A stretch of 63,493 nt of DNA, filler included, from Folioceros fuciformis (lineage: Eukaryota), in NCBI GenBank assembly GCA_049999805.1. It is 5 parts of 5 records of this genome, joined end to end, with 100 filler letters (N's around TTAATTAATTAA, not from the genome) between each part and the next. Parts side by side here need not be neighbours in the genome. Positions count along the whole stretch, not along the records: positions 1 to 26,945 come from JBNGIO010004063.1; 4 more parts are not named here. One strand, given 5' to 3'. A model generated the notes under the pieces. The model made no database searches and was not told the origin of the DNA. It was given only the letters and a program-made list of their open reading frames with translations. Below are positions 1,039-42,409 of the stretch, one piece after another. The position numbers were made by a program, and so were the translations under genes. The number at the start of each line of letters is the position of its first letter. The stretch's first letter is position 1.

Positions 1039-4000
1039 TCATGATGTAAGTTGGGGAGAAAAATCAATGAGACCTAGACCTTCAACATGTGTCTCATGTT
1101 TGTGTCTGGGAAGAGTTTTCGTCAATATATCCACTATGTTTGCATGTGTATGGACATAGGTAGGGCTAACGACACCTCGTGATTTTACATCCCTAATGTA
1201 ATGGTGTTGTATCTCTATGTGTTTGGTTCGAGCGTGGAAACGAGGATGCTCAACAAGTTCTAGGGTAGATGCATTGTCACAGAAGAGGAGGGTTGGCTTA
1301 GGCTGTTCAGTGTGGACAAACTGGAGAAAAACTCTTTCCCACTCTACCTCTTTTGCTGATTCTGTCAAGCACTTATATTCTACTTTTGTGCTGGGCTGAG
1401 CTATGCTTGTCTATTTCTTGCAGGACCAGCTTATGGCAGCAGATGACAGTAAGAAGACATAGGCAGATAGGCTCCTACGGGAATCTGAATCTGAGGCCTA
1501 GTCAGCGTTTGCGAAACCCTGCAAGGTAGGGGCCAAACTAGTCCGCTTGTAACACAAGCCAAGGTGAGGAGTACCTTTCAAATATCTGAAAATATGTTTA
1601 ACTGCTGTCCAGTGGCTGCGTCCAAGGCACTCCAGAAACTGAGAAGTAGTGTTGACAGCATATGTAATATCCGGCCTCGTCCAGTTGCTAACAAAGAGTA
1701 GGCTGCCAACGGCATGCCTATAAGGTACATCCTTCATATTTGCCTTGTCAAGTACTGAAGTCGAGCAGTCATTCTTGCTGAGTCATGTTCCAACAACAGT
1801 AGGAGTAGCGGCAGGATGTGATGTGGCCATATGGAATCGCTGTAAAATCTCAAAAATATACTTATGCTAATGGATAATGATCATGCCTTGCTCACAAACT
1901 CAAAGGACTTGAATTCCTGGATAGAATTTTAGTTCTCCAACATCTATCATCTTGAACTCCTTGTGAAGCATGTCTCGAACTTTTGCTAACAGTGGTTTGT
2001 CGGTGGAAGCAAAAATGGCGTCATCATATATGGCCAGCAAGACATAAGCTTTTCCATCATCATAGATGTACACCGAGGGATCTGCGGGACTCTGCTTAAA
2101 GCCAAGGGACTTCGGGCAAGTTTCTAACCTAGCATTCCAGCGTTCTGCACGACGAATTGGTTGTATAGGAACAGGAATAAGATCAGGAGTATCTCCAGAG
2201 TCAGGAGAAGAAGCTATGGAACTTTGCTCACTTGAGTCTCCTAAACCTGCATCAGGATTCTGGCCAGGTAACTCAAGATCACCTACAGGTTGTTCAGAGG
2301 TGACGTGTTCTTCTGGATTTGGATCTACGTCGTGATCTGGATTTGCATTGGCAGGAAGAAGCTGTTGGTCTGCAGGTGGAGGAAGGGCATCTTGGTCGAC
2401 AGAACCATCATCACCATCTACATCACATGGATATTCAGCAAAGTCCTCGGCATACAGAAGATCAGTAGGATGTCCAGGTAAAGTGCCATTCTCTAAAACT
2501 AGTGGATTTATTATCTCAATGAAAGTAACACTCCTAGCGATTGCGGGCTACAAAGTCTTAGGATTAATAAGCTTATAAGATTTGGTTACTTCACTGTAAC
2601 CAACAAAGAGTAGGGGAAGAGCCCTATCATCTAACTTTCGCCGTTTCTCTGCAGGCACATATGCAAAGGCTTTGGAGCCAAAAACACGAAGATATGAAAT
2701 GCTTGGCTTCCGATTCAAGAAGACTTCATATGGGGTCTTATTGGACAGAGCCTTAGTGGTAAGTAGGTTTAAAAATATAGGTTAATGTGACCACAGCTTC
2801 TGCCCAGTATGGAGAAGAGAGTCCAGACCACAGCAGCATAGATCTGGTCATGCCCATCAAGGTTTGGTTCTTTCTCTTCGCTACACCACTCTGTTGCTGA
2901 GTGTAAGGAACAATAAGTTCATGTATTATGCCTTTGTCTTCCAGGAATTGTGTGAATACATTACTGACAAATTCGCTGCCATTATCAGATCTGAAAACCT
3001 TGAGAAGACGACCAGTCTGCCTTTGAACCAAAAGCAACCACTCTTGAAAAAGAGTGAACGTATCACTTTTCTTTTGCATGGGATATGTCCAAGTATATCG
3101 ACTGAAGTTGTCTATGAAGGTAAGATAGTATTCTGCTCCACCCAAGAATGGGACTTGCAGTCGTCCAGAAATGTCTGAATGTACTAAATCCAAGATTGCT
3201 ATTGTTCTGTGAGTAGGTGTACAAGGAAATGAAGCTTCACGTTGTTTTGTTAAAACACAAATCTTGCATGTGGGGAGTTCCTTGAAACTTGAAGGTAACA
3301 GCTCCCTGTACTTGTCCTGTCTAGATGATGCCAGGAGTTTAGTCTTGTTAGCATGGCCAAGGCGTGCATGCTAGAGCCTGGCCATCTGGGTAGCTGTTAG
3401 GCTGCCATTAGTTGCTGAACAGACTTGCTCTCGATGTATACAGGAAATGTCTAGGCGATACAACTCTGACTCCAGAAAGGCCTTAAAGATACAGACTTCA
3501 GGAGCACTATGTCTAGTGAAGCAACATACAATCCTTGATACAGTAAGTACTAAACTTTTCATTTTCATGAGTTTGCTCAAGGACATCAAGTTTTTCGCCA
3601 TCTTTGGGACATATAAGACATCTGGAAGCACTAACTCAGAGTCATTATGCAACAGGAACTTGCAGGTTCCATATCCTAAGATACTTAGACTAGTGGCACT
3701 ACTCTCATCACCAAGGTAGACTCTGTCTGGAGCAGAAGAAAAAGTAAGGCAAGTGAAAAGAGACTCGTCCCGACAAATGTGCGCTGTTGCCCCATTGTCC
3801 AGGTACCAACTGTCAACCTCACTCGCTAGAGTATTTAGACAGATAGTTAGAATCTTTACAACTGGCTTGCCTGAATTTGGTGTTGAGAAATCCATTGTAT
3901 GCTTATCTTTATTTTTTTAGGTTGTTGAATTCGCAATTGCTGGACGAGGTGCTATCCTTAGAGGTTTGCCAGCTTTCTTTTTGCGACATTCACAAGCCCA

Positions 4001-4228
4001 GCGACTAGGCAGTCCACACCAATTGCAGTTGCCTTGACGTTTTTGTATATTTGATGAGGAACTCTGGCTGCCATTGTTGGTTGGTCGTTGAGACTGATTT
4101 CTTCCACGACCTCGGCCTCTGCCCCTCCAGGCAGAAAATACCTTGTCATTCTTGCCTTTATGTTGTCCTTGTCCGCGCATGTGACGGACTTGTTCTTCCT
4201 GGTATAATGCTCCAATAACAGCACTGAG
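1039..4228 (-). pseudogene. Disrupted copia gag-pol (integrase upstream of RT), with part of RT deleted
   Basis: ORF fragments 3917-4180, 3371-3895, 2753-3193, 1498-1737 and 1039-1368 carry canonical copia motifs. Confidence 0.9.
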
Positions 4229-4238
4229 NNNNNNNNNN

Positions 4239-4291
4239 CTAAAGTAGCTTTAAGTATGTTTATTTAACCCTAAGAGGTTATTTTTCTAACA
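4239..4291 (-). repeat. Outer end of the 5' LTR of copia element B (rest hidden in N gap)
   Basis: ctaaagtagctttaagtatgtttatttaaccctaagaggttatttttctaaca is near-identical to 101-155 and ends in TAACA (TGTTA on the minus strand). Confidence 0.75.
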
Positions 4292-5598
4292 CTCATGACC
4301 TCATAGAGGGTCATGACTTCTCCTAACTTGAGCTTCTTTGCGTATGCACATTGCTTCATGAGGCTGTTCTAGGTTGCGACAAATGTGCGCTAGCGTGTTG
4401 GTAGGGTCATCAAGAGGGCTATGGCTGCCTGATCCTCTATTAAGGTAGTCCTGCATGAGGCAAGTCTTGCTCTCAAACTGCTGAAGGTAGTTGACATGTG
4501 CTTGGATGCTTTCCCCGTCCTTATATTTAAGGTTGTGGAAGTTCCTTATGGCTGTGGCTTAGTGCTAGGCATCATTGGTTTCAAACATTTGTGTGAAGCG
4601 TTCCTAGATGATTTCTGTTGTCGAGGCACTAAAGGTGTGATGAACCATATCTTTGTCAATCCTGGCACTTAGCAAATTGCGGGCTCTTCTGTCGAATTTT
4701 ATCCATTGATCGTAGCTTACGATTCTTGATGCGGGGCATAGCACTAACCCATTGACTATTGTCCATAGGTCTGCGTCCTCAAGATGTCCTTGCATTCGGG
4801 TGGCCCAAACATCGTAGTCTACACCTATGAATCTATTCTTTTCCTTTATTTCGATGCGGAGGCTAGCATAATGTTGCGTGATAGGGTTTGCAGCACCACC
4901 ACCACCACCCACGACTGCGCCACCACTACGAGCGGTGCCTCCATTGGCTCCTTTAAAGGTTGACATGGTTAGGTTTTATTCATGGAGCTTTAGCGTTGTT
5001 GAAATCGATTGCTTAGGGGATTTGGGGCCTCACATGCTTGGAGAAGATTCTTCCCGTCTCTCAATATGATGCCTATGAGGCTGTGCCGCAAGCGGGTCTT
5101 TGTGTGGACCTTTTTTTCAATCTGGTGAAGCTTCTTCGACACATGGCTCTCCAAGGTAGGCAGTTTGATGTTTCTTCGATTTGGTGCTACTTCTTTAATT
5201 CTCCTCACGGATCTACATCCGGACCGTGGAGAACTGAGAGGGGGATAACTTAATTGGAGATAGTGTTCCTCATGCACTGGTCTTGCCCACAAGTGGGCTC
5301 CCCTCCTCCGAGCCATTAGGTAACCATTCCAGTGGCATGTCTTAAATCCTCTTGCTCTGATACCATGGGAAAACGCACAAAGGTGCGACAATGATCTTTC
5401 TTTATTACAGGAGATCAGTTGGATTATTACTCTTGTTCAGATGGCTCTTGTTATGCTTGCACGTGTGTAGCAAGGCCTATGAGGAGGTGCGACGGTTGGG
5501 CAAGAATTATGGTTAGGTGTTCTTTAGTGAGTGGCGTGAACTATCTTGAGTCAGTCACCTAGGTATGTGGGTTCTCCTAGTCAATCACAATGTTTACA
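4292..5598 (-). mobile_element. 5' part of a second copia element (A): putative LTR 5366-5598, PBS, gag N-terminus
   Basis: gag N-terminal motif YDVWATRMQGHLEDADLW (ORF 4604-4966). tRNA-Met PBS is directly preceded by CA. Candidate LTR start TGTAAA at 5598. This LTR does not match the element B LTR. Confidence 0.65.
5354..5365 (-). other. tRNA-iMet primer binding site (TGGTATCAGAGC)
   Basis: Plus strand gctctgatacca; canonical plant LTR-retrotransposon PBS abutting an LTR-terminal CA. Confidence 0.85.
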
Positions 5599-5659
5599 TG
5601 GATGAGAGAAACGAATAAGGTTCATGGGTACAAGCAAGACCTTTTAAAGATTTGGTGGA

Positions 5660-6760
5660 TGCAAATATGGATGTAGGGTTATTAGGGTACAAGATTCCAA
5701 GCTCAAACAAGAAGATGAAATATTTCATCGAAATGTGCTAGAAATGAAGGCTTTCATGATGAAGCATCTCTACGATTTGCTTTTTGCGGATTTGACTTGT
5801 GACTTACAAAAACATGAGAATGACAAGTAATTGATAGATGGTGGCCTTAAAGAACCATTAAGTGGGATCAATAAATACACTAGCAACAGTGTGAACTACA
5901 CTATATCCACGCATGGTGTGGATGAAATTATGCAAGCAAGAAAAGCTTTATGCCCATAGTGCAAAAAGAGAACCATACAAACATTTATATGGTAGAAAAA
6001 TATTCCACGGAACATAGGAGCAGTGGACACAGTTTAGAACCTTAGCATTGGAAGTGATGTTAAGGCGAAGACATCTACATCGAGGGCACCACTATTTTCT
6101 CATGGGGGCTACCTTCTACTTAGAGTTATCCGTCTTGGCATGGTCATTAAAAAGCATTTATCGATCATATTGTAGACTTCATGGTTGTCTCATTATATCA
6201 AAAACCTTTAGGGTTGATAAGTATACTTCTACAAATATTCTTGTGTGATGGCAATTGGGTTGTTTACGCCTTCTAGGATTTGGAAGTTTTCTACAAGCAA
6301 TTATATAGAGATGGTAGAATGTAGTGGCAATAGATATGGATATGAGGTGCACACTATACATGACATAGAGGGTTTATGGTCTAGCAATTTTGTTAGATGT
6401 AGAGGAGGAGATAATAACATCATTATTCTTGAGAGGCCCATCCAAATTTTGGGCCAAGAAAGTTTGCAATATTAGTGATATTGATACAAAGATTCATGTC
6501 TTCAGACTGCTAGGGAAAAGGGGCAATAAGGTGATGCAAATACAAAGAGGGCTACAAACGACCTTTTAGCTATTATAATTTGACATGAAAATAGAACACT
6601 TCCATCACAAACTGTAAAGGCCCCTGAATTTCTTGTGTTGGAGATTGAGGGCAACAACTTTGCAAGTATAGAAGAACAACGACTTAGGTCTTTAGATGTC
6701 ATTGCAGTTTCAGAAGCAAATCAGGAAGAAATGGCTTGAAATTAGAATGAAATATGAGTC
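5660..6760 (+). pseudogene. Decayed beta-class N6A/N4C DNA methyltransferase-like ORF with C-terminal extension (copy 1)
   Basis: Manual translation across stops and shifts: IFHRNVLEMKAFMMKHLYDLLFADLTCD (motif IV-like), FIW*K, YQKPLGLISILLQIFLCDGNWVVYAFxGFGSFLQAII*RW*NVVAIDMD (motif X/I/II-like). Homologous to 42410-43570. Confidence 0.65.
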
Positions 6761-7599
6761 TAGGATTTTACTGCATGCTTATATTAGGTCTCACAGACTA
6801 TTACCTTGACCATGATAGCTCCTTTACATCTTTGAGGGTAGTGTGCCAACATACAAAGGTATACATTTGAACAAAAAGAATATGGTGTTTGAGCATCTTG
6901 GTCACTTTAATTATCAAATCTTGCTTGAATGTATCAATGTTTTTCAATTGCAAACATGTATGACACACACATTAAGCGCTAGCTTATAAAAAACCATAGA
7001 CTTCAACAAAAATCTGGTTGGCATTTTTAATTTTTCTTATGAGGTCAAATGAACTTGGAGGAATCCATCCGCTAGGCACAAACCTCGTTTATCTACGTTT
7101 TGTGCAAGAAGACAATGTAAGTGCCAAAGGAATTTGTTGCCTTAGCAAAATGTATGTCGATTTACATCGCATCCTACCTCATTTTTCTAACTCTTACTCT
7201 GCTCCTTAGCTATGAAAAATTGTAAGAGAGGATGAAGCTTATACAAGAGATTTTGGAACATCACTATAAGTTTTGCGTGCACTTGCAATAAATTTCATTT
7301 TGTGTCAAGCTTTCTCAAATTTTGAGTTGGATCCCAAAGATATTGATCCCAAGTTTGGCCTTTCAAGTGAGGATGATTCTCGGCAATGCAAGAGGGCTGG
7401 ACTCGGAGTTCCTTCGACATTGGCAGTAGTGACCTATAAGGACTATTTTTTTTTTACAGTAAACTCGTCCTTGGCTCATGGCCTACAGGGGTGGGCTGGA
7501 CCCGAAGTTCCTTGGCTCTTGAGGGATTGGATTCACTGAGAATCTATATAAAGAGGAGGAGGGGGAGTATTCCACTACAGGAGCCTGCTCCGGTGGGTT

Positions 7600-8920
7600 G
7601 GTGGCCGGCATCCCTATAGAGACTAAGTTATGTGGGTGCCAATTTGGCCAAGGCGGAGTTAACGACCCTAGTGGTGGTCTTGGGGGAGGCAGAAAGTCAA
7701 GAAGGACTTCTAGTCACGGAGCGCAACTGAGAGAAGCAGAGTCCAGGCGCCTCGGCCAGGTGGAGTCTCCGCAAAGATCAGAAGTCAGGGAAGGGTAGAA
7801 AAGGATCGAAGCGTGGAGGGGGGGCGGAGCGACAGCAAGGTGGCGCGGCCATCAGGATCGGGGAGCACCGACCTAGGAAGGGAAACAGGTGCAACAACTT
7901 AGGGAGCGTGCAACAGTCGAGGGGGAAGCCAACGTTTGAGGGGACAAGAGTGAGAGTAGAGTGGGGAATGGTGATACAACTCGAGCCAGCAATCCCCACT
8001 ATACAATGGCCCACTATGGACCACTGGAAAATAAGAGCCGGTGGCCTTGTGCAGGAGTTGGACCTGGAGTTCATGCAGAAGAAATGGTGCTATGACAGTC
8101 CCTCTTTGGTGCAAGAGTGTGCTCAGTACTTAAGGGCAAGGGCGTTGGAGGTAAGTTTGAGTCAGAAACTGTAGGACTGGAGACTGGAGCTTTTTCAGGA
8201 GGTGTACAGACGGGGAGAGGCAGAGCAGGGAGGCATCATAATCGATCTTCAGAGAAAGAGGACTTTGAAGACCGTTGTGGCCACCCTTATGAAGTCGGGA
8301 GAGGGAAGAACTAAAAACAGCTGGGTAGTCCGCCAGTTGGCTTCAACCCCATTGGCAGGACTAGCCAAATGGATTTTATGCTTCGTGCAAAGCAAGAAGG
8401 TAGATCACATGGCCGATCATTTTCTGGTCTTCCTGCATAAGGTAGTCAATGGCACCTAGGTGAACTGGGCCCGGATTATTTTCGACCGGGCATATGAAGA
8501 ATGGGTCAACTTGTTAGCAGATTCATCTCGCCCTTCCCTCCTCTCACCTTTCCTGGTTCATCTTTTTGCTCACACCAAGTGTTTAACTGAGTTGGAAGCA
8601 GTGTCCTCTCTCCATAGTTAGAAGCCAGTCATGGAGATCAGGGTTGAGGAGGAACCTAGAAATGGTTCGGGGGAGGATTTTAGCAGCTAGGAGCCTGAGG
8701 CGTTGGGTGACTTAGAAGAGGAAGTCATGACGGTCAGGAAGAAGAAGCCTTGGACCACAAGTCGAGAGGAGGTCAAGAGAGGGAAGGCTGGGCTGGGCGA
8801 GCAGGAGGTGGCAACCCTGGCTCAAACTGGCAAAGTGGGAAGGAGTGAGAAGGTTCTTCCCAATGAGGCCCTAATAACCCCCATCGTAAGGGGGGTTGTA
8901 ATTTGTGCAGGAAGCTGAGG
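7600..8920 (+). pseudogene. Degenerate retrotransposon-associated accessory ORF
   Basis: Purine-rich fragmented ORFs (7908-8174, 8202-8459) continuing as V-N-W-A-R-I-I-F after a stop. Resembles accessory ORFs of plant LTR elements; no RT or integrase seen. Confidence 0.3.
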
Positions 8921-11699
8921 CACTATGAACGAGAGTGCCGCAGCAAGCAAGCCAGCGAACCAAGGAGACAAGGTTCCCCAAGTGCCCACCTTGCCCTACT
9001 GGCACTAGCATTTAGTGCTAAATGAATGAACAAATGAGATTTCAAGTAAATGAGTTCTTATCATTTCCCAATTTGCAGCAAATAAGCACTCCAAATGGAT
9101 TCTATCCAACATCCTAGATGAGCTTACCAAGCATATTTTCACATTTAAAAGGAATTTCCATTTCATCACTGAACTTAATGTTAGACCCTCCTTATTACAT
9201 CAAGTAGGGGTCTCGAGCATGTTTTAGTGAACCTTCCACGTTTCTAGAACTTTATCATTTAAGACAACATAAGTTATTGTAAACTAAAAAAATATAGAGA
9301 GTGATAATATGTTCAAGGGCTCCCATATTCTACTCTTCATAACTTATTTAAAATAAAAGGGGTCTCAAACTTGAAAATAAGTATCCCTTTATCCATTCCC
9401 TTCTACATGCACCATCAAGTCCAAGAAACAACAATGAAACCATAACTCAATTGACAAACGAAATTTTGGCTAAACTCACCTAAAACCCCTACCCAATGGA
9501 CCTACCAGTTGTTTAGTAAATAGTTCTTTCCATTTCCAGGTTTGCAGGAAATGGAGCTATGAAAGTGGTCTCATCTCCAATATCCAAGATGAGGATACGC
9601 AGCCTATCTTGGGAATTAATCTGGATTCCCATTTGACTGCCGAACCTTATGTTCGAACTCCCTATTGTATTTTTAAAGTGCCATTATTTGTCAAGCCTCC
9701 ACTTTTCCCTTTCATGCCTATGCAATTTGGATTTTCTTTCCTACAATGTCTGTACATGACACATGGAGGGCTATTCAATGCTTGAAGTTATTAAATTCCC
9801 GCAATGCAGATGCTGCTACCCAAAGAAGTCTTCCGACTACATGTTATAATCGTATGTTTGTCCCTAACACCATTTGTTCAGGAGGTTCTATGATGAGCCA
9901 GATGTTCCTTCCATTTTCTTCGTATAGTTACCCGGCCCACCCTCGGAAAGGTTTTGAATTTGTTCCCCCTGCCTCTTGGTGAGAGTTCCGTTTGCAAGAG
10001 TGTTTACGCCTTTGACCGGTGCAATTGAACAGCCCTCATCGCAGCAGCAGGAGCTCTAATCATCTCCCAGCCATGGGGTTTGGATAACATCTTCTGGCTG
10101 CCAGTGCACATCCTTTGCACCTTGGATTGATTCACCATACCAGCCTTGATTTTGATGGTGATGGCTTGCCTGCGGAATTGGCTCCCTGTGCCAGAATCAG
10201 TCCGTGAAAGGTGACAAATATCTGAAGCAGATATGGGTTCAAGGTCGAGAATAGTTGCGATGATCCATCATCTCAACATGGAGGCTCAAATGATGTCATG
10301 TGGCATTTATCACCCTTCCTGTGAATTTGAACTGGGTAACAGGTCTGAAAGGTTTTGTGCTTCCAGATCGACATCCCTTGGAAAGTGATTTCCTCTGTGG
10401 CGAACGCTCTCTTCGGGTTGGATTTTATGCTCCCTTAGTCATAGATTAGAGCATCGAGATCTGATATTCCACAAGAAAGATTGAAGGCCGCTGATGAAGC
10501 ACCTGCGTTCTGCTGAGCTGCCCGATGTGGGAGAATGTGGACTGATGATAAGGAGGGTGGTGTGGGAAAGTTTCGAAGGCTGTCAATGTGCGATGCCATA
10601 CTTTGTAGCTGTGGCTGGGATATCGTTGCCGTGAACATCATGACACCTCGTCCTGACAAGACCTATACCAATTCCCGAGTCCTATCTTAGACAAGACTCC
10701 TAATGGCCAGTGCGCTGACTTTGTCTTGGTCTGGATTTTATGGTGCAATGGTTTTTAGATCGGATCGGCAGCCGTGATGCGTTGAGATGAGAGATTCATG
10801 TTCTGTGACGTATGGATGCGTGCCGCAGGGCTACTAAGCTGTGCCAGAAGGCCGCAGAATAGCTCCTGGAGATCTCCCTACAGCGTATAGCATCCATACA
10901 CTAGCTTTTCGGGTGACCTTTTCTGCTCCAACTCAGCCTGAATCAACCTCCCACACATCTGCACCTGCAGTTGCTGTTAGCGCATGATTTTCCGAACAGC
11001 TATCCCGTTATGACCTGTGGGTATGAGTTTTCCAGGGGTGCTCGTTTAGAGTACCGAGCGTCCATGGGACACCAAGAGAGTGCCAAACGCACGAAGTACA
11101 GAAAGTAACTTGTGGGACTGGACGCGACCAGTCTGAAGGGCACGTTTCAGGCACAAACGATGCCAACAACAGCTCCTGTGCTGCTGGTAACTTTTTCCTC
11201 CGGAACAGGAAGTACAAGCCCCAAGAGTGCGATGCACATCATCCTCTTCCTTGTGTTTGACAATAGGATCTACGCAGAAACATGGCTATAACTCGCCCAG
11301 TCTACTGGGCATTCTTTGCTTGCATTCAGAGGCAGTCTGAATGAGGCTTTATATCTACGAGTTCACGCGACACACATCCAGAGGCTCTTTGAAGAATCCC
11401 TTTAACTGAGCACCTGCCCACACGAGCTCACCGCCTGGGATGGACCAACTCCTACTGATCTAGTCTAACGCATAGATGATTTTGATAACAGAACCTGGTA
11501 TATCAAGAGTGAAAAAGAACAACAAGCGAGCCCTGTGAGCAATGATAATGCAAAAACCTGACGGATGCCAGAACCGCTGCCCACGTTGGGTTGCACCAAT
11601 AGGGTGAGCATATGGATTATGCTAAGGTGTCAAAATTTGCAGTCACAAGGTGTTATGCAGACCCGAAACGTAGACGGAAGGTGAGGAAAAGCGAAGCTT

Positions 11700-13520
11700 T
11701 CAGTTGAAGTTGACAAGGAAGAAGAGGAGAGCCAATGCTGCTATGACCGATATTCGATTGCCCCGCTCCAAGGGTAGCACACCTGCAGACGAGCTGCTCA
11801 ACGACAGACAAGCAACCAGATCCCACAGTCAGAGGGTGAGGCCGTGTAATGAAGGATTGAAACGGAAGCGAAATCCTCCTTGCACATCGGTAACATACCC
11901 TACGCTTGATTGGTAGAAGCATGTTGGAGTACCTGCCAATGAGGACAAGGGAACCACAAGGCATGAGCTTAAAATCCATGTCCAGCACCGCGAGGCAGCA
12001 TGGCAGGAAGATAAAAGGAATGCAGGAAAAAGACGCAGAACGCACTTGGATCGGTGGTGCTCAAGGTGGCAGCTCCAGAGAAATTGCAAGCTTGAGATTG
12101 GAAGCCGCTCCTGACCCAGAAGCTATTGAAAGCATAAGAAGCATGGTTGTAGATGGTGTTGGGCACGAAGCAGCGACCCCCCGGCTGAATTGGGCCGCAG
12201 TCCGCCTGGCCCTGCGGTCCGCAAGCCCAGTCCAGACCAGCCTGCAGACTGGCATTGGACGCACTCGTCCTCCCCACGCACCAAGCCCGGACTTGGTTTC
12301 CCCCGCCGTTGCCTCCTCCTCCGCCGCTCCCACCTCCCCCGGAGCTGGAACCCCCGGATGAGCTGAAGCTGATCTGGTACACCTGCTTCTGGTCGGGCGT
12401 GAAGAGCCCCCAGTTGCGCTCCGACGTTGGCCCCGGCTTGCCATTCTCATTGTAGAGCGCGAAGATGTAGACATCAATCTCCATGCCCACCTTCCCAGGG
12501 GTACCCTGATTGTTCAGCGAGTGCTTCACCAGGTTTCCGTTGAAGGCCTGCGCGTTGCTCACCGTGGCCGCCGTCTCCCCGGAGTCCCCCTTGGATGGCC
12601 ATCCCGCCTCCGACACCAGGACTGTGATCTGCGAGTAGTTGTAGAAACCAAGAGCAGCGTAGACGGCATCCACCTGCGCCTCGTAGAGGCCGTAGTACTT
12701 TAACCCGGAGCCGGAATCCACCACGGGCTGCGAGGCCTGGAGGAGGGCGTAGTTGAGGCTGATGTTGCCCGGATCCTGCACGTAGGCGTAGTAGGGGTAG
12801 GTGTTGACCATGAAGACGGAGCCTGTCTTCTGCAGGAAGGAGAGCATGTCCCGCACCACGTCATCCAGGCTGGTGTTAAACCTTCCCGCTGAGGGCGGAT
12901 ATGATTTCTGGAGCACGGACATGGAGTTGGGCGTGGACACCTTGATGCTCCCGTCCAGCTGCTTCTTGGTGAGCGCCGTGTGGATATTTACCATTGCCGA
13001 CACAAGGTACTGCGACAGGTTTGTGGTGGTGAGCACCTCGGTGCCCACCGCTACCATCTTGATGTTCACCTTGGGCACGTAGGCTGCCACATTGTTGTCC
13101 ACCCACTTGTTGGCCGCGTCCCCCGACATGGCCAGCCCCAGCAGCTCCTGGTTGGTCACCCCGACGATCACCTCTATGCTGCTCCCGGACAGAGCCTTGA
13201 GGGTGGAGGAATCCGAGTCGAAGAGGCGCACCCTGGTGATCCCGTACTGCTGAAGCAGCTGCACCGTCTGCGACGCCGGCGGCAAGTCGGTCGCCGCCCT
13301 CCCCCAGCATACTCCCACCTGCTTAGATCCTGCGCCCAAACCACCCACCACCGTCACGGGTGCGACAACACTTGTCAAAAGCATTCATCTCACAGACCGC
13401 CATGGCCGCAACATTAGAGCTGGCATTGCTGTACCCGCATTGGCATATACCTGCCACGCTGAAAAGGAGACACAGTCGCAGCAGCAGGAGCAATCCAGCC
13501 CAACCCATCCTCCGGTCCAT
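11700..13520 (-). CDS. GPI-anchored glucan endo-1,3-beta-glucosidase (GH17 + X8/CBM43), 4 exons: 13520-13451, 13329-12046, 11932-11899, 11793-11700
   Basis: Signal peptide exon (MDRRMGWAGLLLLL); GH17 motifs VGVCWG, VAVGTE, VNTYPY, VSEAGWPS, SERNWGLF; Gly-rich linker; X8 (WCV..LDWACG..ADC..CNF). GT-AG introns phase correctly into a hydrophobic tail SSAG..ISVIAALALLFFLVNFN*. Confidence 0.93.
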
Positions 13521-17849: not shown

Positions 17850-19760
17850 CAAAATGGAGACACTTTCTTCTTCTTCATGTTTTCACTCTCCTCCCAAGAT
17901 CTAGATTCTACTTCTTCATTCTCCTCCATTTCACCATGGCGGATGTCTTCTATACCACTTTCTGCAACCACTTGTATTGGTTCAAGACTTTCTAAGTACG
18001 CCGTTCAACCCTCCCAATCTGTTGCTTCAATAGTAGCATTGTGTCGTTTTAACACTCTAGTATTATAGTAAACATAGACAAGCATACCAACCCTATGCAC
18101 CATGGTTCTAGCTCTTTTATCACGCCAAACATGTTTCCAAGCACTCCAGTTTCTTTCCCCTCCTATTGCAGTTGGAGGAATGCTCAACAACTTCTTTGCT
18201 ATATCTACAAGTTGTGAACATTCCTCTCCATATGCTTTCCACCACACCACACTATTATGCATCAACCCTTCTTGAAAATGTAGCTCCTCATCAATGCATA
18301 ACTTACCAAGTCTAAGGCGATAGTGGTTGAACTGCAACAAAACACTATGAACTTCTCTGGTATTAGACGCCAATGCCTTCCTAATACGCTCACCTTTCAA
18401 CCTATCAGCTGGAGAAATGCCAGGTAGCAATTTCCTATGCTTTGAATCTACCATTGTTGCAGCAATGAAGCAATCATGCCAACCAAACCCCTTCCGCGCA
18501 CTCCACAAATCTCACAAGTAAAGAACTACTTCAGAAAACTTAAGCAGAGTTACTCCCCTGTTGCCTAGGATCATTGTCTTGTATTAGCAATTGACCAAAA
18601 GTGATAGTACTTTGCTCATTAAAATGCACCTCAAGCTTCTCTAACATCCAATAAGCATCTCCCAAAATAATCATTCCCCCTTCTAGTTGATATAAGACAT
18701 CACATATATGTTGAAATACAGAAATAAAGTACTTCACGTCCAGCCAAAATGTTCCAGCACTATCTGTTACCTTCCGAGCAATCCCAAAACTTTCATCTTG
18801 TGGAAAGGCCGAATCATCCACGACTGCGAGAATGGCCTGCTTGTTAGCTATCAAGCTATTCATACTTAAAAGGAAGCTAGCAAATCTGGTTTCATATCCT
18901 TCTGCAACTCTCGCTTGATCTTCAGTCTCCGTCAAGCCTTTTTCAACAAACCATGTGGAGCTGTCTTCGTTGTGAAGAAATGCACCACCTCCTTAGCTTC
19001 TACTATTGTTTTTGTCACTGCCTCCAATGCACCAATATCTTTCAACAATAAGTTCAATACATGTGCTAAACACCCAAATGTTATAAGACTTAGTTGATGT
19101 TCTTGCAGATGCTCCCATGCTACTTTCATGTTGCCGGCATGGTCAGTAATCACTGCAACAACTTTATTTTCTAATCCATGCATGTTTCTTAATAACCTCT
19201 ACAAATCTCTCCTTAATGTGAAGGCCAGTAACACTATCCGCCTCTGTACTGACCATTTCTAAGAAGATACTTGCATCAACATAACATGCTTGAAAATTCA
19301 AAATATGATCAGAACCCCTCTTGCGTGACCACCCATCACTAGTAAGAGTAACATCTTGTAAGCTTTCATGTACTTTTCCACATCAGCTGACACTTCCTTA
19401 TATATCTGTTGCAAGTATGTATTTGCCAATCACCAACAAGATGGTAATTGAAAGGCAGGCCTCAACAACTTAAAAAACTCCTTACAACTCTCACTTTCCA
19501 CAATATTAAAAGGCAACGCCATCTAATATAAAGCTTTAGCAAAAGAAACTTGTAACTTTGCATTTTCCTCACGGGACATAACATCTACAAATGCATTTGG
19601 TGTTGTTTTCTTCCCACTCATTGAGGCACCTATGGAAATAGCAGTCAAAGTACCTTGTTCAGATCTTGGTTGCACACTGGCCTTCATTATAGCATTTTTC
19701 ACCTCCGCCACCACATTTTGTAACTCCTAAGCTTGGTCACTTGTTAAAAAACTAAAGTAA
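17850..19760 (-). mobile_element. Degenerate hAT transposase (DUF659 + hAT dimerisation domain)
   Basis: TLTSDGWS, VITDHAGNM, CLAHVLNLLLKD, TRFAS, WWKAYG..LLSIPPTAIGGERNWSAW..LVYVYYN. Frameshifted; TIRs not identified. Confidence 0.88.
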
Positions 19761-30849: not shown

Positions 30850-31465
30850 CGAATGGGATTATCTCTTCCATCGAATGGGATTATCTCTTCCATCGANNNN
30901 NNNNNNTCTTCCATCGAATGGGATTATCTCTTCCATCGAATGGGATTACCCTCTTCCAATGATCTTCAAATGGGATTATCGTCTTCCATCGAATGGGATT
31001 ATCTCTTCTATCAGTGGTGGAATGGGATTATCAGTGTGGTGATCTTCGAATGGGATTACCCTCTTCCATCAAATGGGATTATCTCTTCCATCAGTGATGA
31101 AATGGGTGGGATTATTCTCTTCCATCAGTGGTGGAATGGGATTATCACTGGTGATCTTCGAATGGGATTACCCTCTTCCATCAAATGGGATTATCCTCTG
31201 CCATCAGTGGGATTATCCTCTACCATCAGTGGTGGAATGGGATTATCCTCTTCCATCAGCAGTGGAATGGGATTATCCTCTTCCATCAGCAGTGGAATGG
31301 GATTATCCTCTTCCATCACTAGTGAATGGGATTGTCCTCTTCCATCCGTAGTGGAATGGGATTATCCTCTTCCATCACTAGTGAATGGAATTGTCCTCTT
31401 CCATCCGTAGTGGAATGGGATTGTCCTTTTCTATTGGAATGGGATTGTCCTCTTCCATCACCGGT
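30850..31465. repeat. Minisatellite with 22-30 bp units built on gaatgggattatcctcttccatc
   Basis: Many tandem copies visible, with an internal 10-N gap. Confidence 0.95.
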
Positions 31466-32269
31466 GGAACCCTGTTTGAAGAAGCCATTGAAGAAGAACA
31501 GGAATAAAGTTCCTTTTTTTGCTCGGTGATGATCTTCGAATATTGGAATATTGATGGCAAGGGATGGGAGAGTCTACACTTCAAATTCAACAAAGAGAAG
31601 TCTCCTTTGGAGCTTTGATATATTGGATCTGGGTGAGCTCGAATATTAACTCAACCAATATTTCATATAGATTAACTATGTTCTGAATCAATTGTTCAAT
31701 CCTAAAGAGACAATGGCAACTATGGAGTTAATACTTGGTCAATCTCAACCAGGCAATCAAAACAATGTTCAAGTGCAATGGATTCAAGTGTGCAAATGGA
31801 AGATGACCGACAAGAGAAGAGGCACAACAGAAATAAAACTAAAGATTATGGATTGAAATTTAAAATAAAACTAAAGATCCTGATGTGTGAAGTCGAAGTG
31901 ATAGAAAAACTATAGGCTTAAAGCTAGAACATACAGAATATATCATAGAATTATACAGAATGACACTAGGGTCAAAATGAAATTCCTCCTCACAGACGAA
32001 AGACCAATATACAGAATGACACTAGGGTCAAAATGAAATTCATCTTCACAAACACAACCAACTTTAATGTTCGCAACCTAAGACACCATGTTTTTAAGTA
32101 GACTGACTCCGCGAGGCTTTGGCAAACTAGATACCAATTCCTCGCGGTGTCTTGCTGCGCGGGCATGCCAAGTCGAGCACAGGATGCAGACCTCACGCAG
32201 CATCAATCCCAAAATCCCAACCCCGTCGTTTAATGTACATGTCGGACTCAAGGCTACATACCACATAGA

Positions 32270-34309: not shown

Positions 34310-35019
34310 CTGCACCACGACCAACTCAGCTACACACACATCCTAATCACAACTCACCACGCCCCACCACTCCAAACCCNNNNNNNNNNNNNNNNNNNNN
34401 NNNNNNNNNNNNNNNNNNNNNNNTTAATTAATTAANNNNNNNNNNNNNNNNNNNNNNNNNNNNNNNNNNNNNNNNNNNNGGCCAAGAGCAGCGATCGAGA
34501 CAGGCGGTTTCTCTTAAACAAACTGGAAAACAATGGCGGTTGACTACCTTCTCCATCCGCAGCTGAAGGGTCCATCTTTCGGGTTATTCATCCAATGTAA
34601 AAGGAAAAAAAAGGGAATAATTCCTAAAAAATCACTATACCTATGTAAATAATAAATGCAGTGTAAAAAACATATTATTTATTCATCCAGTCTATGGATA
34701 GGATTTTTTTCATTTTTTTTCAAAAATAAAAAAATCCGTTAAAAACTAACATATCTATCTAAAAAATAAATCAGTATAAAAAATAAAGAAATCAAGGAGC
34801 TAAAATATTATAATATTTTCATAATAAATGGAAACATTGGCTTACGCTGGTGTCGGAAATAGACCGGAAATAGACCATGAGGAGGCAGCCATTCGCACAG
34901 CGGTTACTGCGATAGACGTAAGGCACGCATGGTTAGCGCAGACAGACCTTGAGACTGCCGTTATATGTATTACGGTCAAACAGTTATTTAACTATGTTCC
35001 CTGGGCTGGGAATGAAGCA

Positions 35020-37293
35020 TCAAACACTTGGACCCGCAGCATCATGACTCATGTTCGCCACCTTGTGCCCAGCTCCGAATCCCATGTGCCCCAGCAGCAC
35101 CCAGATGTGGGTGATGAATTCCCCGCCCTCCGTGAGCAGCTCCACATGCTCCTTGGCCTTCTCAAGCACGGCTATGGAGATGAGGAGGTCCGCCCACACA
35201 TTCCCCAGCATCTCCCACATCTGGGCCCTCATCTGGGCGCTACTCTCCTGTTCCTTTTCCGAAGGACAAAAGCGTTCGCGCAATTGCGACGCAAGGAGTC
35301 TCCCAGCCTTCCATGGCTCCTGGGCATACTGTTGCGGATGCTCCTTGGCACGCCACTCGCGGAGATCGTCCGCGTCGTCGTCCAGAAGCGTCCTGGAAGC
35401 CAGAGTTCCCCCCGCCTGCCTCTGGCTGCTGTTGTGCGTCGCAAGATTGGGAAGGTGGAGTCGGCGCTGGAGTTCGTGATTGGTGTTCAAGAACACCTCC
35501 TTGGCCAGGGTGGCGTTGGAGGGCAGCAACTGCGTCCGCTCCTTGAGCAGGTACAAAGTGTACCGCGACAAGTACTGCGACATCTCTTTGTGGTTGTCGG
35601 CCTTAGCGGAGGAGCAATCGTTGCTGCCCAGAATCATTGCCTTCAGCTCTGTCCACAGGATTTGGAATATGCTGCCTTCCTGGTAGTTCTCCTCACAGTT
35701 GATCTCGTGGGCCTCGCACAGGCTGGTGGCCACGTGCCATGTGACTATGGCGTTCTCCAGGTCCGTGCTGCTGGCCCATGCGAAGTTCTCTGGATCACGC
35801 TGGTCTCTTCTGCTGGTGTGGGCGTGGTAGCCGGAGAGAGTGTACCCGGGAACAGAGGCCATGGTGTCCTTCAGGTCCTGCAATTGCCACTTCTCTTCAG
35901 GGCAGTTCTCGGACGAGGGCTTCTTCGCCTGGTCCAGGAGGTTGCACCTTTCGAACACTTTGCGTAGAAGGAAGATCTCTAAGTCTCGCGCCTTGGTCTT
36001 GGGGACACTATGCCTGTCGTCGAATTCCTTCTCTCGGTCAGGGATCATGGAGACCTGCCCGAACCTGTGCCTCCAGTAACTGTGCCGGAAGGACCCAAAA
36101 ACCTTGAGGTTCACCACCGACTGGTGGCATAGGGCCACGTAACCCATGACGGTCCAAAAGTAAGTGAGAATTATTTGCTTGGGCCAAACACGGGTGTCGT
36201 CTCGACGAGGTTGTTCCCTTTTCACCTGCCTGCGACATATGACATACGCGCAGGTTAGCCAGACTCTCGTCCAGTCTGTGAGGACCACCCTTACCAGCTG
36301 GTAAACCTCCACCAGGATAATAAAGGCGAACAGGATCCATGTCACTATTCCAGCCACGCCGTTTGGCTGGAGCTCCTTCTCCCCTTGCTTGAAGACAATC
36401 AGGGAGCATATGATGATGACGGAGAGGGAAGAGGCTCGGGAGCCCGGGCCGACCCATGTGTATGCTGTGCCATACGATTTGGTGAACACGCTGTCGAACA
36501 GGAATCGGAGCTCTATGTCCAGGACGTTGACGAGTCTGTTCCTTGGAGGTTCTGAAGGTTTTTTAGACGGGTCTTGGATAGCTGCTGAGCTTGATGATGA
36601 TAATGACTCTCCCCACAGCTCATTGAAGAATGTTCTGATCTTGTCGGTGCTCCACTCGTGCATGTACAGGTTTGTGAGCCGTCTGCGGTACATCTTGAAG
36701 AGAGCAAAGGCTATGCAGATGTCCACCACTTTCCTGCCGTGGCCCGGATTCTGTGCCTGAAGTGCTTCCCTGTGGTCCGTCACCTCTGAGACCATCACCA
36801 CCACGTAGGACTGTCTGATCTTTTGTTCCGTTGCCTTCCGGTCGTCTTTGGGCTCGATTGGGACCCATCGAGACCAGTTGGTGAACAAGGGCTCGGACCA
36901 CTTCTGTTTCTGCAAGAAATGGTACCATTTCGGAGTGTTGAAGGCGTGCTCGTATGCCCGTTTCTCTCCTAGTACGAAGTAGTTGTATTCTCCATTAGAT
37001 TCGCTATACAAATTAGATTCTCCATACAAATTAGATTCTCCATCATATTCGCCATACACATTAGATTCTCCATCAGATCCCCTATCCAAAGGGTCGAACT
37101 GCATGAGTTTGCAAAGGGGGCCGGCCGCCTTGTCCAGATAGTCCCGGCTGGCACAGCGCAGAGCCACAGTTCGCTCGGCGTACTTCCCAGTTCCCACTAT
37201 AGCCAGAATCACGCTGATCCAGAGGATGGTGCCGTGTGCCGAGGAGAACACCACATAGAACGCCGTGACCACCTGCCCAGCCAGCGACATCAC
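35020..37293 (-). CDS. DUF4220/DUF594 membrane protein (5'-truncated by gap), copy 1
   Basis: GTGKYAERTVAL, ICIAFALFKMYRRR, LDIELRFLFD, WHVATSLC, LSRYTLYLL and C-terminal WADLLISIA..HVELLTEGGEFITHIWVLLGHMG. Confidence 0.88.
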   Translation of the reverse strand: MMSLAGQVVTAFYVVFSSAHGTILWISVILAIVGTGKYAERTVALRCASRDYLDKAAGPLCKLMQFDPLDRGSDGESNVYGEYDGESNLYGESNLYSESNGEYNYFVLGEKRAYEHAFNTPKWYHFLQKQKWSEPLFTNWSRWVPIEPKDDRKATEQKIRQSYVVVMVSEVTDHREALQAQNPGHGRKVVDICIAFALFKMYRRRLTNLYMHEWSTDKIRTFFNELWGESLSSSSSAAIQDPSKKPSEPPRNRLVNVLDIELRFLFDSVFTKSYGTAYTWVGPGSRASSLSVIIICSLIVFKQGEKELQPNGVAGIVTWILFAFIILVEVYQLVRVVLTDWTRVWLTCAYVICRRQVKREQPRRDDTRVWPKQIILTYFWTVMGYVALCHQSVVNLKVFGSFRHSYWRHRFGQVSMIPDREKEFDDRHSVPKTKARDLEIFLLRKVFERCNLLDQAKKPSSENCPEEKWQLQDLKDTMASVPGYTLSGYHAHTSRRDQRDPENFAWASSTDLENAIVTWHVATSLCEAHEINCEENYQEGSIFQILWTELKAMILGSNDCSSAKADNHKEMSQYLSRYTLYLLKERTQLLPSNATLAKEVFLNTNHELQRRLHLPNLATHNSSQRQAGGTLASRTLLDDDADDLREWRAKEHPQQYAQEPWKAGRLLASQLRERFCPSEKEQESSAQMRAQMWEMLGNVWADLLISIAVLEKAKEHVELLTEGGEFITHIWVLLGHMGFGAGHKVANMSHDAAGPSV

Positions 37294-37847
37294 GAGTNNN
37301 NNNNNNNGGCCAAGAGCAGCGATCGAGACAGGCGGTTTCTCTTAAACAAACTGGAAAACAATGGCGGTTGACTACCTTCTCCATCCGCAGCTGAAGGGTC
37401 CATCTTTCGGGTTATTCATCCAATGTAAAAGGAAAAAAAAGGGAATAATTCCTAAAAAATCACTATACCTATGTAAATAATAAATGCAGTGTAAAAAACA
37501 TATTATTTATTCATCCAGTCTATGGATAGGATTTTTTTCATTTTTTTTCAAAAATAAAAAAATCCGTTAAAAACTAACATATCTATCTAAAAAATAAATC
37601 AGTATAAAAAATAAAGAAATCAAGGAGCTAAAATATTATAATATTTTCATAATAAATGGAAACATTGGCTTACGCTGGTGTCGGAAATAGACCGGAAATA
37701 GACCATGAGGAGGCAGCCATTCGCACAGCGGTTACTGCGATAGACGTAAGGCACGCATGGTTAGCGCAGACAGACCTTGAGACTGCCGTTATATGTATTA
37801 CGGTCAAACAGTTATTTAACTATGTTCCCTGGGCTGGGAATGAAGCA

Positions 37848-40121: not shown

Positions 40122-40225
40122 GAGTNNNNNNNNNNNNNNNNNNNNNNNNNNNNNNNNNNNNNNNNNNNNTTAATTAATTAANNNNNNNNNNNNNNNNNNN
40201 NNNNNNNNNNNNNNNNNNNNNNNNN

Positions 40226-40652
40226 ATGACAAGGCTCTACAGGTATATAGCAGCCACCCACGACAGGGGCATCATGTACAGGTCGAAATCCAAAAATGCA
40301 TTGCAGTTAGTGGATTACAATGACGCCGACTGGGCCGCCGACCCTGATAGCAGAAAGAGTGTCTCTAGCTATGTTACCTTGCTTGCTGGAGGTGCTGTGG
40401 CCTGGAGTAGCAGGAGACAAACCACAATCGCACTCTTCTCGACAGACGCCGAATACAAGAGTCTCACAGAGGCCTGCAAAGAGGGAAGTGATTGCAGCAG
40501 GAGTGGTGGAAATTATCTACTGCCCGACAAGAGAGATGACAGCTGATATCCTCACGAAAAGTCTTGGGCGCATCAAACACTACCAGCACGCCACCAGCCT
40601 TGGACTCTGCGCTGCAGGAGAACTCTTCAAATGGAGCAGGGTGCTTGATTAG
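40226..40652 (+). mobile_element. Ty1/copia RT/RNase H fragment with internal deletion
   Basis: YNDADWAADPDSRKSVSSY..WSSRRQTTIALFSTDAEY, then in another frame YCPTREMTADILTKSL. PPT-like agtgggagag near 40881. Confidence 0.88.
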
Positions 40653-42409
40653 TAGCTCAACAGAGCTTGGGCGCAGCCGCAAAAGAACTGGAGCGCAAGT
40701 GACTGAACGAAAGTCGAGAAGTCGGCCTGCCCTAGTTTCTGGATTTTTCGAGTCTAGGTTGCTCAAATCTCGTTAGCAAGTTTAAGCTTTTCTCTATGTC
40801 AAGTAGATATAGATAAGCAAACAATAAATGACATATATATACATATATAGTTAAGTATGTGTAGATAGCCCTCTCACCTGAGTGGGAGAGTTAGAGTAGG
40901 GTAAATACATTAACTTACTTATAGGTTTAGGGCTAGACAGTTAGAAACCCTAATCGTCGCCATATCTTGGTGACGTGACCGAGAACGCTGAGCAACAACT
41001 TTTCTTTTCTCACGCTGTGACACCCATCTGATCCGTCTCATGAAAAGCAACAAGTTGGCAAGATTTGGGGAGTCCTGAAAAGGACAGTCCCGAATTTGCC
41101 TTGTCCCCGTAAATCCACTTCCAAAGGGGTAGGCCTTGCTTGCCATTGGTATAAGGTCCCCCACGGAGGACCATGAACACCATGTAGTCATAGACACCCG
41201 AAGGGCATGGATGGTGAATTAGAGGATGGGACAATTCCATCGCCGCAAGCCATCATAGGGTGTCATAGAATGCCCAAGCCAATATGGTCAACTGATTTGG
41301 GGGTCATGGAACTTCGGGTTCAGTGACCCGAGGACCTGTTATTAGTAGCCAAACCATGCCGAAGAGTGAAACTGCCATGGGCCAAAGAGACTGTCGGGTA
41401 TAAAAGAGGCCGCTCGGACCGTATTCAATCACTTTATTAACCAAAGCACCAAAAAACTACCAAGTGCCTGTCGTTCGATTTTTGGAGGGGAGTTTCGGTA
41501 CCTGCTACCTTCCACACAACCCTTGAGCAAACCACATGCAAGGAAGATGTTGTGCTGGCCCATCACAAAGTAAGTATGCATTCCAAAGAGGCATCAAACT
41601 GCAATAGCGTTCGCATTGTTGGGGTTTAAGGTTATGAGGGCTCCCGATTGCAAACACAATAAGCAATTCTTCCTTTTGCACATTTTTGTGCACGCACAAC
41701 CTATGTTGTGTGGACACCCAAAAGGAGCGTAAATGGGCATTGGCTGCATTGCGCATACGCAATCTACATAGGAAATTGGCCTATCCGATTCGCGCCCAAT
41801 AGCCCCAACATGGGACTCACTCAATGCTTTCTGCAGTGCTGTGACTCTTTCACCACTTGGGGTTTAGAGATGTGGGATTTGTAGCACGCATCTTGTGGAT
41901 GTACTCAAGGTGTACACATGGAGGACATCCAATATTGAATGAAAGCTACCACCTATAGATCCCGCTGCCACTCACCCCATTACTTTCCTTCCCCATTCTA
42001 AATATCAATGCAATTTGACGAAGCAATCTCAAGAACCACACTTATGTGAAACTAGGAAGGGGAATAATAAGTATTGGTGTAGAAACACAGACACCCAGAC
42101 CATCAACCCCTCATGTTATAATCTGCCTACTCAAATGCAACAGCTATACAACATCACGTTACACTGGGTTACTGAGCCTAGCCCCAACCTGCTGTTTGTT
42201 GCACTTGGGAGCAACATAATAAGAAAATGTTACTCGGTGTGTTACTGTGTTAGAGGCCTAACGTAGTAGTGATGATTGATGCACCTACATACCTGCGCAA
42301 CAAGGATAGTGGCACCAATGTCAACCTCATCTGACGTTGTAAACCGTTCATCACATGAACATTACATAATGTTCATGTGATGAATTGGAAGCAAATGAAG
42401 GAGGAGAAG

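Follow-up and report, generated by a model that had tools for sequence, protein, structure and literature searches.

Decayed copies of a prokaryote-type, beta-class methyltransferase-like gene in Folioceros fuciformis

How did a gene resembling the beta-class amino-methyltransferases of bacteria and phages come to lie, broken and in two copies, in the DNA of a plant? This question is raised by a stretch of 63,493 nucleotides (nt) of Folioceros fuciformis (GenBank assembly GCA_049999805.1), hereafter the window, which consists of five parts of five records joined end to end with 100 filler letters between each part and the next. Positions are counted along the whole window, of which 1 to 26,945 come from JBNGIO010004063.1, and parts that stand side by side need not be neighbours in the genome. 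The initial annotation had quoted a series of peptide strings, obtained by translation through stops, as the relic of a beta-class DNA methyltransferase in a plant repeat. These strings were indeed recovered at the place given, on the plus strand at 5648-6740, where they are spread across three reading frames (IFHRNVLE..YDLLFADLTCD lies in the frame of 5561), and the second copy was located at 42380-43470. We consider it rather likely that both copies are relics of a low-copy, once-selected, prokaryote-type beta-class methyltransferase-like gene family that was later lost copy by copy.

Two broken copies of one reading frame

The two copies, each corresponding to one open reading frame (ORF), are the following:

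5670-6739, plus strand: copy 1 (c1), pseudogene of a beta-class methyltransferase-like ORF of ~350 codons
42380-43470, plus strand: copy 2 (c2), pseudogene of the same ORF as c1, beginning at an ATG

At the DNA level, c1 and c2 are 69-70% identical in three blastn pieces (c2 range 42422-43457). No similarity was found outside ~5648-6736 and 42424-43470, either at the DNA level or when 3000-12000 was compared with 40100-46500 in translation. Since the homology is confined to the ORF, the unit is a single ORF of ~350 codons.

Both copies are dead and untranslatable, and neither can make a protein today. In c1, nine premature stops precede the terminal TGA at 6737 (ten stops in 350 codons), and the frame changes six times (at ~5722, 6138-6141, 6157-6158, 6210, 6273 and ~6567). 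Four premature stops (42518, 42710, 43188 and 43414) were counted in the 317 codons of c2, together with at least three frame changes (~42715, ~42993 and ~43190-43225); compared with c1, sequence is also deleted at ~43164-43200. Neither copy retains the open reading frame of a functional gene; no part of the window is functional at present, and the copies are ordinary silent pseudogenes.

When read through stops and frameshifts, both copies yield one intronless ORF of ~350 codons with a common order of blocks, namely D-L-P-C-G (motif IV), IWEK, QKPLGL, VVDAFVGSGS (motif I) and AIE. The positions of these blocks, some of them placed with a hidden Markov model (HMM), and of the adjoining segments are given below (an asterisk stands for a stop):

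5789-5800, plus strand: c1 remnant of motif IV, D-L-T-C (LLFADLTCD), put by HMM and hhalign on the family pattern tD-l-P-y-g
5987-6019, plus strand: c1 IWxK block, IW*KNIPRNIG, with IW*K at 5987-5998, where TAG replaces Glu
6199-6273, plus strand: c1 QKPLGLISILLQIFLCDGNWVVYAF, motif X helix and the strand preceding motif I, matched by tblastn to five phage methyltransferases
6276-6341, plus strand: c1 remnant of motif I, GFGS..LQAII..NVVAIDMD, after a 1-nt deletion at 6273
6420-6739, plus strand: c1 C-terminal extension (RGPSKFWAKKVC ... EFLVLEIEGNNF ...), kept in c2 and without a family match
42542-42556, plus strand: c2 motif IV, D-L-P-C-G (LFFADLPCG), put by HMM on the family pattern ltDlPyg
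42739-42750, plus strand: c2 IWEK (IWEKT, HMM positions 94-102)
42746-42889, plus strand: c2 unit with a 40-nt period, a 47-nt stretch present three times at spacings of 57 and 40 nt
43050-43187, plus strand: c2 SKPLGLLGMLLQMFSCEGDWVVDALVGSRRVLQAVIQHGWHTKAIE, motif X, motif I and the 'iGiE' strand, the best-preserved part and source of all significant matches
43225-43470, plus strand: c2 C-terminal extension, homologous to c1 6420-6680

In its first part, the inferred ancestor comprises an N-terminal segment of 35 amino acids (aa), FHRNVL..LFFADLPCG, ~55 aa, IWEKTNIPPNFG and ~20 aa. These are followed by a second part with RAPLF.H.G..LLLRVI, ~25 aa, SKPLGLL..F.C.GDWVVDAFVGSGS.LQAVI..GW...AIE/D and ~100 more residues. 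Motif I is whole in neither copy: c2 reads VVDALVGSRR, and c1 reads VVYAF, then the 1-nt deletion, then GFGS, the latter string continuing as GFGS..NVVAIDMD.RC..YM.*RV over 6276-6370. Taken together, the two copies suggest VVDAFVGSGS as the ancestral form.

The frame of the ancestor was followed through the phase of the mismatches between the copies. By this measure, c1 keeps the frame of 5561 from 5723 to ~6140, and its later frame changes (~6138-6141, 6157-6158, 6210 and 6273) coincide with insertions or deletions (indels) that differ between the copies. One of these is an additional A specific to c1 at ~6203-6210, which shifts the frame of the 6199-6273 segment. The phase of excess mismatches likewise switches at the c1/c2 indels. 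As the frame changes are copy-specific and lie at such indels, the ancestor would have had one uninterrupted, intronless ORF. Two other readings were tried and rejected. A +1 frameshift shared by both copies, passing through a frame that reads 'GHHYF', was discarded because mismatch phase and indels show that this frame had been misread upstream of ~6140. An intron restoring the frame was discarded because the only GT-AG pairs of c2 that would do so are either 46-49 nt long or delete conserved blocks, and have no match in c1.

Two observations concern c2 itself. An assembly gap (N at 42793-42802) sits among its three 40-nt-period units, which shift the c2 frame, and the tripled unit is probably an assembly artefact, the alternative being a duplication specific to c2. 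In addition, an 18-nt perfect palindrome with arms 2 nt apart lies at 42347-42384, just upstream of and overlapping the c2 ATG, and the homology between c1 and c2 begins at its right arm.

Homology to amino-methyltransferases

Asked whether the ORF is a METHYLTRANSFERASE, we regard amino-methyltransferase homology as established with high confidence. Among Pfam families, only PF01555 (N6_N4_Mtase) matched, in one of six read-through frames of c2 (E=0.0042, 17.5 bits), and the match was repeated at 15.2 bits in a longer c2 read-through. When 85 aa of c2 were compared by tblastn with 50,697 phage records, 41 records were obtained at E<=10 (best 0.01). The best 25 of these 41 comprised 18 DNA methyltransferases, five hypothetical and two unannotated entries, and none with another function. 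Similarly, six of the seven records from a plasmid search were annotated as site-specific DNA methyltransferases, and three PHROG methyltransferase families matched the c2 piece from QKP to AIE (E 0.012-0.034; one of seven pieces matched). In the ESM Atlas, 28 of the 30 nearest clusters of the c2 C-terminal piece carry PF01555, with a top score of 0.94.

Profile comparisons were in line with these searches. A two-copy profile aligned by hhalign with six phage methyltransferases at a probability of 96% (E 4.9e-9), and with an alignment of 65 relatives of the methylase of Vibrio phage qdvp001 at E 3e-7. From the same 65-sequence alignment a local subfamily HMM was built, with significance estimated from 1000 shuffles. 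The c2 segment from QKP to AIE (46 residues) scored 26.8 bits and the 25-aa QKP piece of c1 7.0 bits, and in both cases no shuffle reached the score. Towards the N-terminus, c2 residues 30-101 fell on positions 12-81 of the model (7.7 bits, again reached by 0 of 1000 shuffles), and c2 IWEK fell on positions 94-102 (4 of 1000). The N-terminal half of c1 was weaker (10 of 1000), and the single best hhalign alignment of the N-terminal half lay on motif IV (P 0.076 against the six methyltransferases; 0.014 against the 65-sequence alignment). The blocks are collinear on model positions 12-81, 94-102, 188-233 and 216-236, that is, in the circularly permuted order with motif IV N-terminal and motif I C-terminal. 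These comparisons support the homology well in the C-terminal half and weakly, though collinearly, in the N-terminal half. The beta-class N6_N4 relic with motif IV before motif I, as initially annotated, is supported by the PF01555 match, the phage hits, hhalign, the HMM and the Atlas. Of the checks proposed at that time, the profile comparison pointed to the expected family and no other, at a score under its cut-off; the structure prediction, run with AlphaFold2 on the N-terminal half with a four-row alignment, gave a mean predicted local distance difference test (pLDDT) of 36.6, too low for use.

A number of results weigh against this assignment or its reach. No match attains the Pfam cut-off (17.5 versus 26.7 bits, with the gene split over frames), and none was obtained with Pfam on five stop-to-stop ORF pieces, with phmmer against the PDB for the c2 C-terminal piece, or with tblastn of both N-terminal pieces against phages. 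In the ESM Atlas the best score of the c2 motif IV piece was 0.77, with no family attached. The middle block (RAPLF..LLLRVI) did not rise above shuffles (116 and 440 of 1000), nor did c1 6276-6566 at HMM positions 216-236 (206 of 1000). Moreover, the six phage methyltransferases had been picked by BLAST similarity to the c2 C-terminal piece, and qdvp001 among them partly for its N-terminal look, so that the hhalign and HMM E-values are somewhat flattering. A word-seeded search of 5.8 billion clustered proteins brought up no close relative: the c2 C-terminal piece (lengths 220-700) gave 52 candidates and the N-terminal alignment (longer proteins) 2257, none of which scored. HMMER over 1.84 billion representatives returned no genuine relative either, with query columns 1 to ~20 (the 'GHHYF' reading) out of frame. 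Neither a donor nor a plant orthologue emerged from these searches, and horizontal transfer is accordingly likely rather than demonstrated. Seven pattern matches in IMG/VR yielded no confirmed relative, in a search that finds near-identical 8-mers only. Two kinds of match were set aside: the HMMER match P0001, a repetitive protein in which 'YxxxCRLHGC' was matched ten times, was rejected as spurious, and two glutaredoxin matches of the c1 N-terminal piece in the PDB (E 0.3-0.4) were judged to be due to chance.

The nearest group sampled is that of phage orphan methylases with a motif IV of the form D-[LT]-P-[YF]-G. All 120 relatives of the qdvp001 methylase belong to PF01555; IWEK is present in 99 of them, and motif IV reads D-[LTP]-P-[YF]-G in 100 (DLPYG 70, DTPFG 21, DLPFG 4, DTPYG 3, DPPFG 1 and DPPYG 1), the remaining 20 having no motif IV pattern within their first 80 residues. 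The motif is TDLPFG in Vibrio phage qdvp001 and TDLPYG in Polaribacter phage Danklef_2. In the plant copies it reads D-L-P-C-G (c2) and D-L-T-C-D (c1), both having Cys (TGT) where an aromatic residue is expected, whereas none of the 100 motifs counted above has Cys. Neither copy shows a canonical motif IV, defined as (D/N/S)-P-P-(Y/F/W) or D-[LT]-P-[YF]. The initial annotation had contrasted DL(P/T)C as a whole with DPPY/SPPY; D-L-P is, however, the usual reading in the phage subgroup closest to the copies, which leaves the Cys, standing for Tyr or Phe, as the one unusual feature. Because the Cys is common to both copies, the selected ancestor probably had it already, and since it stands where a base-stacking Tyr or Phe is expected, catalysis may by then have been impaired or changed in the protein under selection. 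By a rule of thumb in the available portion of PMC8885841, the leading Asp of motif IV would point to N6-adenine rather than N4-cytosine as the target.

Past selection and origin of the copies

In the inferred frame, mismatches between c1 and c2 fall on codon positions 1, 2 and 3 in the numbers 83, 64 and 122, of 287 each (chi-square p 5.8e-5). A Nei-Gojobori analysis of 276 codons gave nonsynonymous (dN) and synonymous (dS) divergences of 0.27 and 1.1, respectively, and the three possible frames compare as follows:

Inferred frame: dN/dS 0.245; 11 stop-containing codon pairs; 58% aa identity
Frame shifted by +1: dN/dS 0.75; 38 stop-containing codon pairs; 46% aa identity
Frame shifted by +2: dN/dS 1.08; 37 stop-containing codon pairs; 44% aa identity

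Divergence is thus mainly synonymous, and in the inferred frame only, which indicates that purifying selection maintained the protein over most of the period after the copies separated. Decay is therefore later than most of the divergence, and copy-specific. The number of premature stops suggests, as a rough estimate, that much of the dN arose in the pseudogene phase. Three points weaken this conclusion, namely that the reading frames behind dN/dS were inferred partly from the same c1/c2 alignment, that dS is close to saturation, and that, had the copies entered separately, the selection might have taken place in the lineages of their donors.

Horizontal acquisition of the family is plausible in view of the intronless ORF, of relatives that are all from phages, bacteria or plasmids, and of the low G+C content at third codon positions (GC3), which is 0.35 and 0.41 in the copies versus 0.45-0.78 in four host ORFs. 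The initial claim of a horizontally derived gene accordingly stands as plausible and is not shown. Under the explanation that we prefer, a bacterium or phage would have passed the gene horizontally to the plant lineage, or to an ancestor of it. The donor enzyme, an orphan methylase of the D-[LT]-P-[YF]-G subgroup, would have used S-adenosylmethionine (SAM) to methylate an exocyclic amino group on a flipped-out base; its leading Asp would make adenine N6 the most likely target. The gene would then have been duplicated locally, with at least one more member elsewhere, would have served the host for long, and would finally have been lost copy by copy through C-to-T and G-to-A decay and small indels. 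The positions of c1 and c2, 37 kb apart and on the same strand, fit a local gene duplication.

Contigs from two DNA runs of the same organism cover c1. A single depth figure (9.4 in one run, 12.7 in the other) spans c1 and its flank; it is a per-contig mean rather than a copy number, and hence a weak measure. Besides these, only two short contig pieces reached at least 80% likeness; they match c1 to ~82% over 5911-5966 and 6058-6099, and one of them has unaligned ends that, by eye, agree with c2 at ~26/30 bases (~87%). Pieces like c1 with ends like c2 indicate at least one third, diverged member of the family elsewhere in the genome.

A third DNA run of the same sample behaves as a bisulfite-type library, with C>T at 185 places and G>A at 111. 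The 38 C>T places listed are without exception in CHH context (H being A, C or T), and the differences per contig nearly equal the number of CHH sites (24/25, 41/42, 119/118, 36/39, 23/23, 34/35 and 20/25), with the contig at 5171-5398 falling short (34/44). In two checked stretches, 8 of the 11 cytosines that are not listed as converted are in CG or CHG. The region 5171-7391, that is c1 and its flanks, thus looks CG/CHG methylated and CHH unmethylated, this being a majority state read from contigs. The observed/expected ratio of CpG is 0.33 and 0.41 in the copies versus 0.59 for the window.

Methylation and CpG depletion of this kind, as in plant transposable elements (TEs), would also suit a different origin, in which the ORF was the cargo or an accessory gene of a TE. 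On this view all three members would be dead insertions belonging to different subfamilies, and the signature of selection would stem from active master copies. The presence of at least three diverged members in the genome speaks for it, diverging active TE lineages leave purifying selection too, and at a dS of ~1.1 neutral flanks would be unrecognisable and termini possibly lost. DIRS1 retrotransposons, according to an excerpt of PMC3266345, even carry a methyltransferase domain whose function is unknown. Against such an origin, homology does not extend past the ORF, and neither terminal inverted repeats (TIRs) nor long terminal repeats (LTRs), nor other terminal direct repeats, were found around c1 or c2. 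On the sides scanned, Pfam detected no reverse transcriptase (RT), RNase H, integrase, recombinase or transposase within 1.5-5 kb. Six-frame scans of 6700-11680 and 40900-45880 contained no TE or viral domain, and no RT, RNase H or tyrosine recombinase matched on either side of c2 or downstream of c1. An RVT_2 is the one RT near c1; it belongs to a Ty1/copia fragment that runs on the opposite strand and stops ~650 bp to the left of c1, and nothing like this fragment lies near c2. Depth is the same per contig over c1 and its flanks, with only the two other short pieces at >=80%; the 37-kb spacing and shared strand suit local gene duplication better; and DIRS elements are reported, in the available part of PMC9033089, from green algae and not from land plants. 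We therefore consider TE cargo an improbable source. The plant repeat or mobile family of the initial annotation is not supported, with the reservation that the termini of a very old element may have decayed beyond recognition. Old paralogues that diverged under purifying selection fit a gene family better than a dead repeat.

About equally doubtful is the alternative that c1 and c2 were integrated separately from related giant viruses, phages or endosymbiont DNA, having diverged under selection in their donors. All detectable relatives do come from a phage, plasmid or bacterium, the intronless ORF and the low GC3 would be explained, and algal large DNA viruses are rich in such methylases, as stated in an excerpt of PMC7248222. 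No other relic of a viral or bacterial gene lies beside the copies or among the window ORFs of >=130 aa, however, and IMG/VR gave no relative, within the 8-mer limit stated above. The Cys and the C-terminal extension, present in both copies, argue for one ancestor already unlike the sampled methylases, and the closeness and common orientation of the copies favour duplication in place.

Finally, a chance resemblance, in which the read-through of an AT-rich non-coding duplicate merely recalls methyltransferase motifs, has in its favour that all library matches lie under curated thresholds, that several pieces do not exceed shuffles, and that the PDB and the large protein searches gave nothing, but it is close to refuted and very improbable given that four collinear blocks fall where the family model would place them (for three of these, 0 to 4 of 1000 shuffles attain the score), that the weak matches are nearly all to methylases, and that a coding-type substitution pattern arises in the inferred frame only.

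As regards the wider setting, the surroundings are land-plant nuclear DNA. The neighbours of the copies comprise a GH17+X8 glucanase, a PLS-class pentatricopeptide repeat (PPR) protein with an E motif, a DUF4220/DUF594 gene, a copine gene and an ABC transporter, and two TE remnants were mapped:

1900-4975, minus strand: Ty1/copia fragment in several ORF pieces, with DUF4219 (gag region), Pol_BBD, gag_pre-integrs, rve and RVT_2
18005-18511, minus strand: remnant of a hAT-family dimerisation domain (E 7.5e-6)

Two stretches of 2818 bp, at 34480-37297 and 37308-40125, are 100% identical and stand head to tail with a short N run between them, each carrying a 773-aa ORF with DUF4220 and DUF594; they represent either a very recent tandem duplication or an artefact of scaffolding or gap closing. 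Tandem-like internal repeats of 70-78% identity were also seen at 30850-31469, in an ORF of short peptide repeats, and at 56265-56625.

Known systems and biological meaning

The closest known counterparts are the PF01555 orphan methylases of phages such as qdvp001 (KT932418.1) and Danklef_2 (MT732459.1), which have the same order of motif IV, IWEK, QKPLxLL, GDxVxD..GS.S and iE. They are 36-44% identical to c2 over 36-53 aligned residues of the region from QKP to AIE. D-L-P-x-G and IWEK(T) are literally common to phage and plant sequences, and both are single intronless ORFs. The plant copies differ in the Cys that replaces Tyr or Phe in motif IV, in a linker from IWEK to the next block that is ~20 aa longer, and in extensions of ~35 aa (N-terminal) and ~100 aa (C-terminal) without a family match; unlike the phage genes, they are broken and lie in a plant chromosome.

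Few prokaryote-type amino-methyltransferases are described as kept by eukaryotes in the portions of the literature available here, namely rotifer N4CMT, Marchantia DN4MT1 and an early-fungal enzyme for N6-methyladenine (6mA). Marchantia polymorpha DN4MT1a/b, as presented in the accessible part of bioRxiv 10.1101/2021.02.12.428880, likewise represent a duplicated prokaryote-type beta-class amino-methyltransferase in a land plant. According to the same part, they are N4-cytosine methyltransferases of sperm with a TSPPY motif, intact and highly expressed, which write N4-methylcytosine (4mC). By that description, c1 and c2 are set apart as D-L-P-C pseudogenes of the D-x-P-[YF]-G subgroup. The N4CMT of bdelloid rotifers resembles them as a PF01555 gene of bacterial origin kept in a eukaryote; according to PMC8885841 it is functional, has five introns and a chromodomain, and loses its activity when SPPY is changed to APPA. 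In contrast, c1 and c2 have no introns, no added known domain, no motif IV aromatic residue and no intact ORF, and the (T)SPPY motif of DN4MT1 and N4CMT is absent from both, D-L-P-C standing in its place. DIRS1-like elements share with the copies a methyltransferase-like domain of unknown role in eukaryotic repeated DNA. As described in the excerpt of PMC3266345, this domain ends an RT-RNase H-methyltransferase pol ORF beside a tyrosine recombinase, whereas, on that description, no relic of RT, RNase H or tyrosine recombinase adjoined c1 or c2 in the scans.

Among the matches listed in a literature search on PF01555 in plants, no plant nuclear N6_N4 relic was present, and those listed for hornwort horizontal gene transfer and adenine methyltransferases contained nothing relevant. 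The available text of a 2025 review of plant horizontal gene transfer makes no mention of a DNA methyltransferase, 4mC or a methylase, although its supplements might list such genes.

A stronger version of the history proposed here would be that of a domesticated phage-type enzyme, its aromatic residue already replaced by Cys, that strong selection then preserved over tens of millions of years and of which an intact, expressed paralogue may persist. We regard this as unlikely. If it were true, the protein would either write 6mA or 4mC, as a new eukaryotic enzyme of unusual chemistry, or be catalytically dead and bind SAM or DNA in another role for which it was recruited, and its domestication would be independent of that of Marchantia DN4MT1 and rotifer N4CMT. 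Irrespective of this, the relics add evidence that selection long maintained such a gene, its catalytic motif non-canonical, in another plant lineage, and their interest lies in whether an intact member with the D-L-P-C motif persists in the plant.

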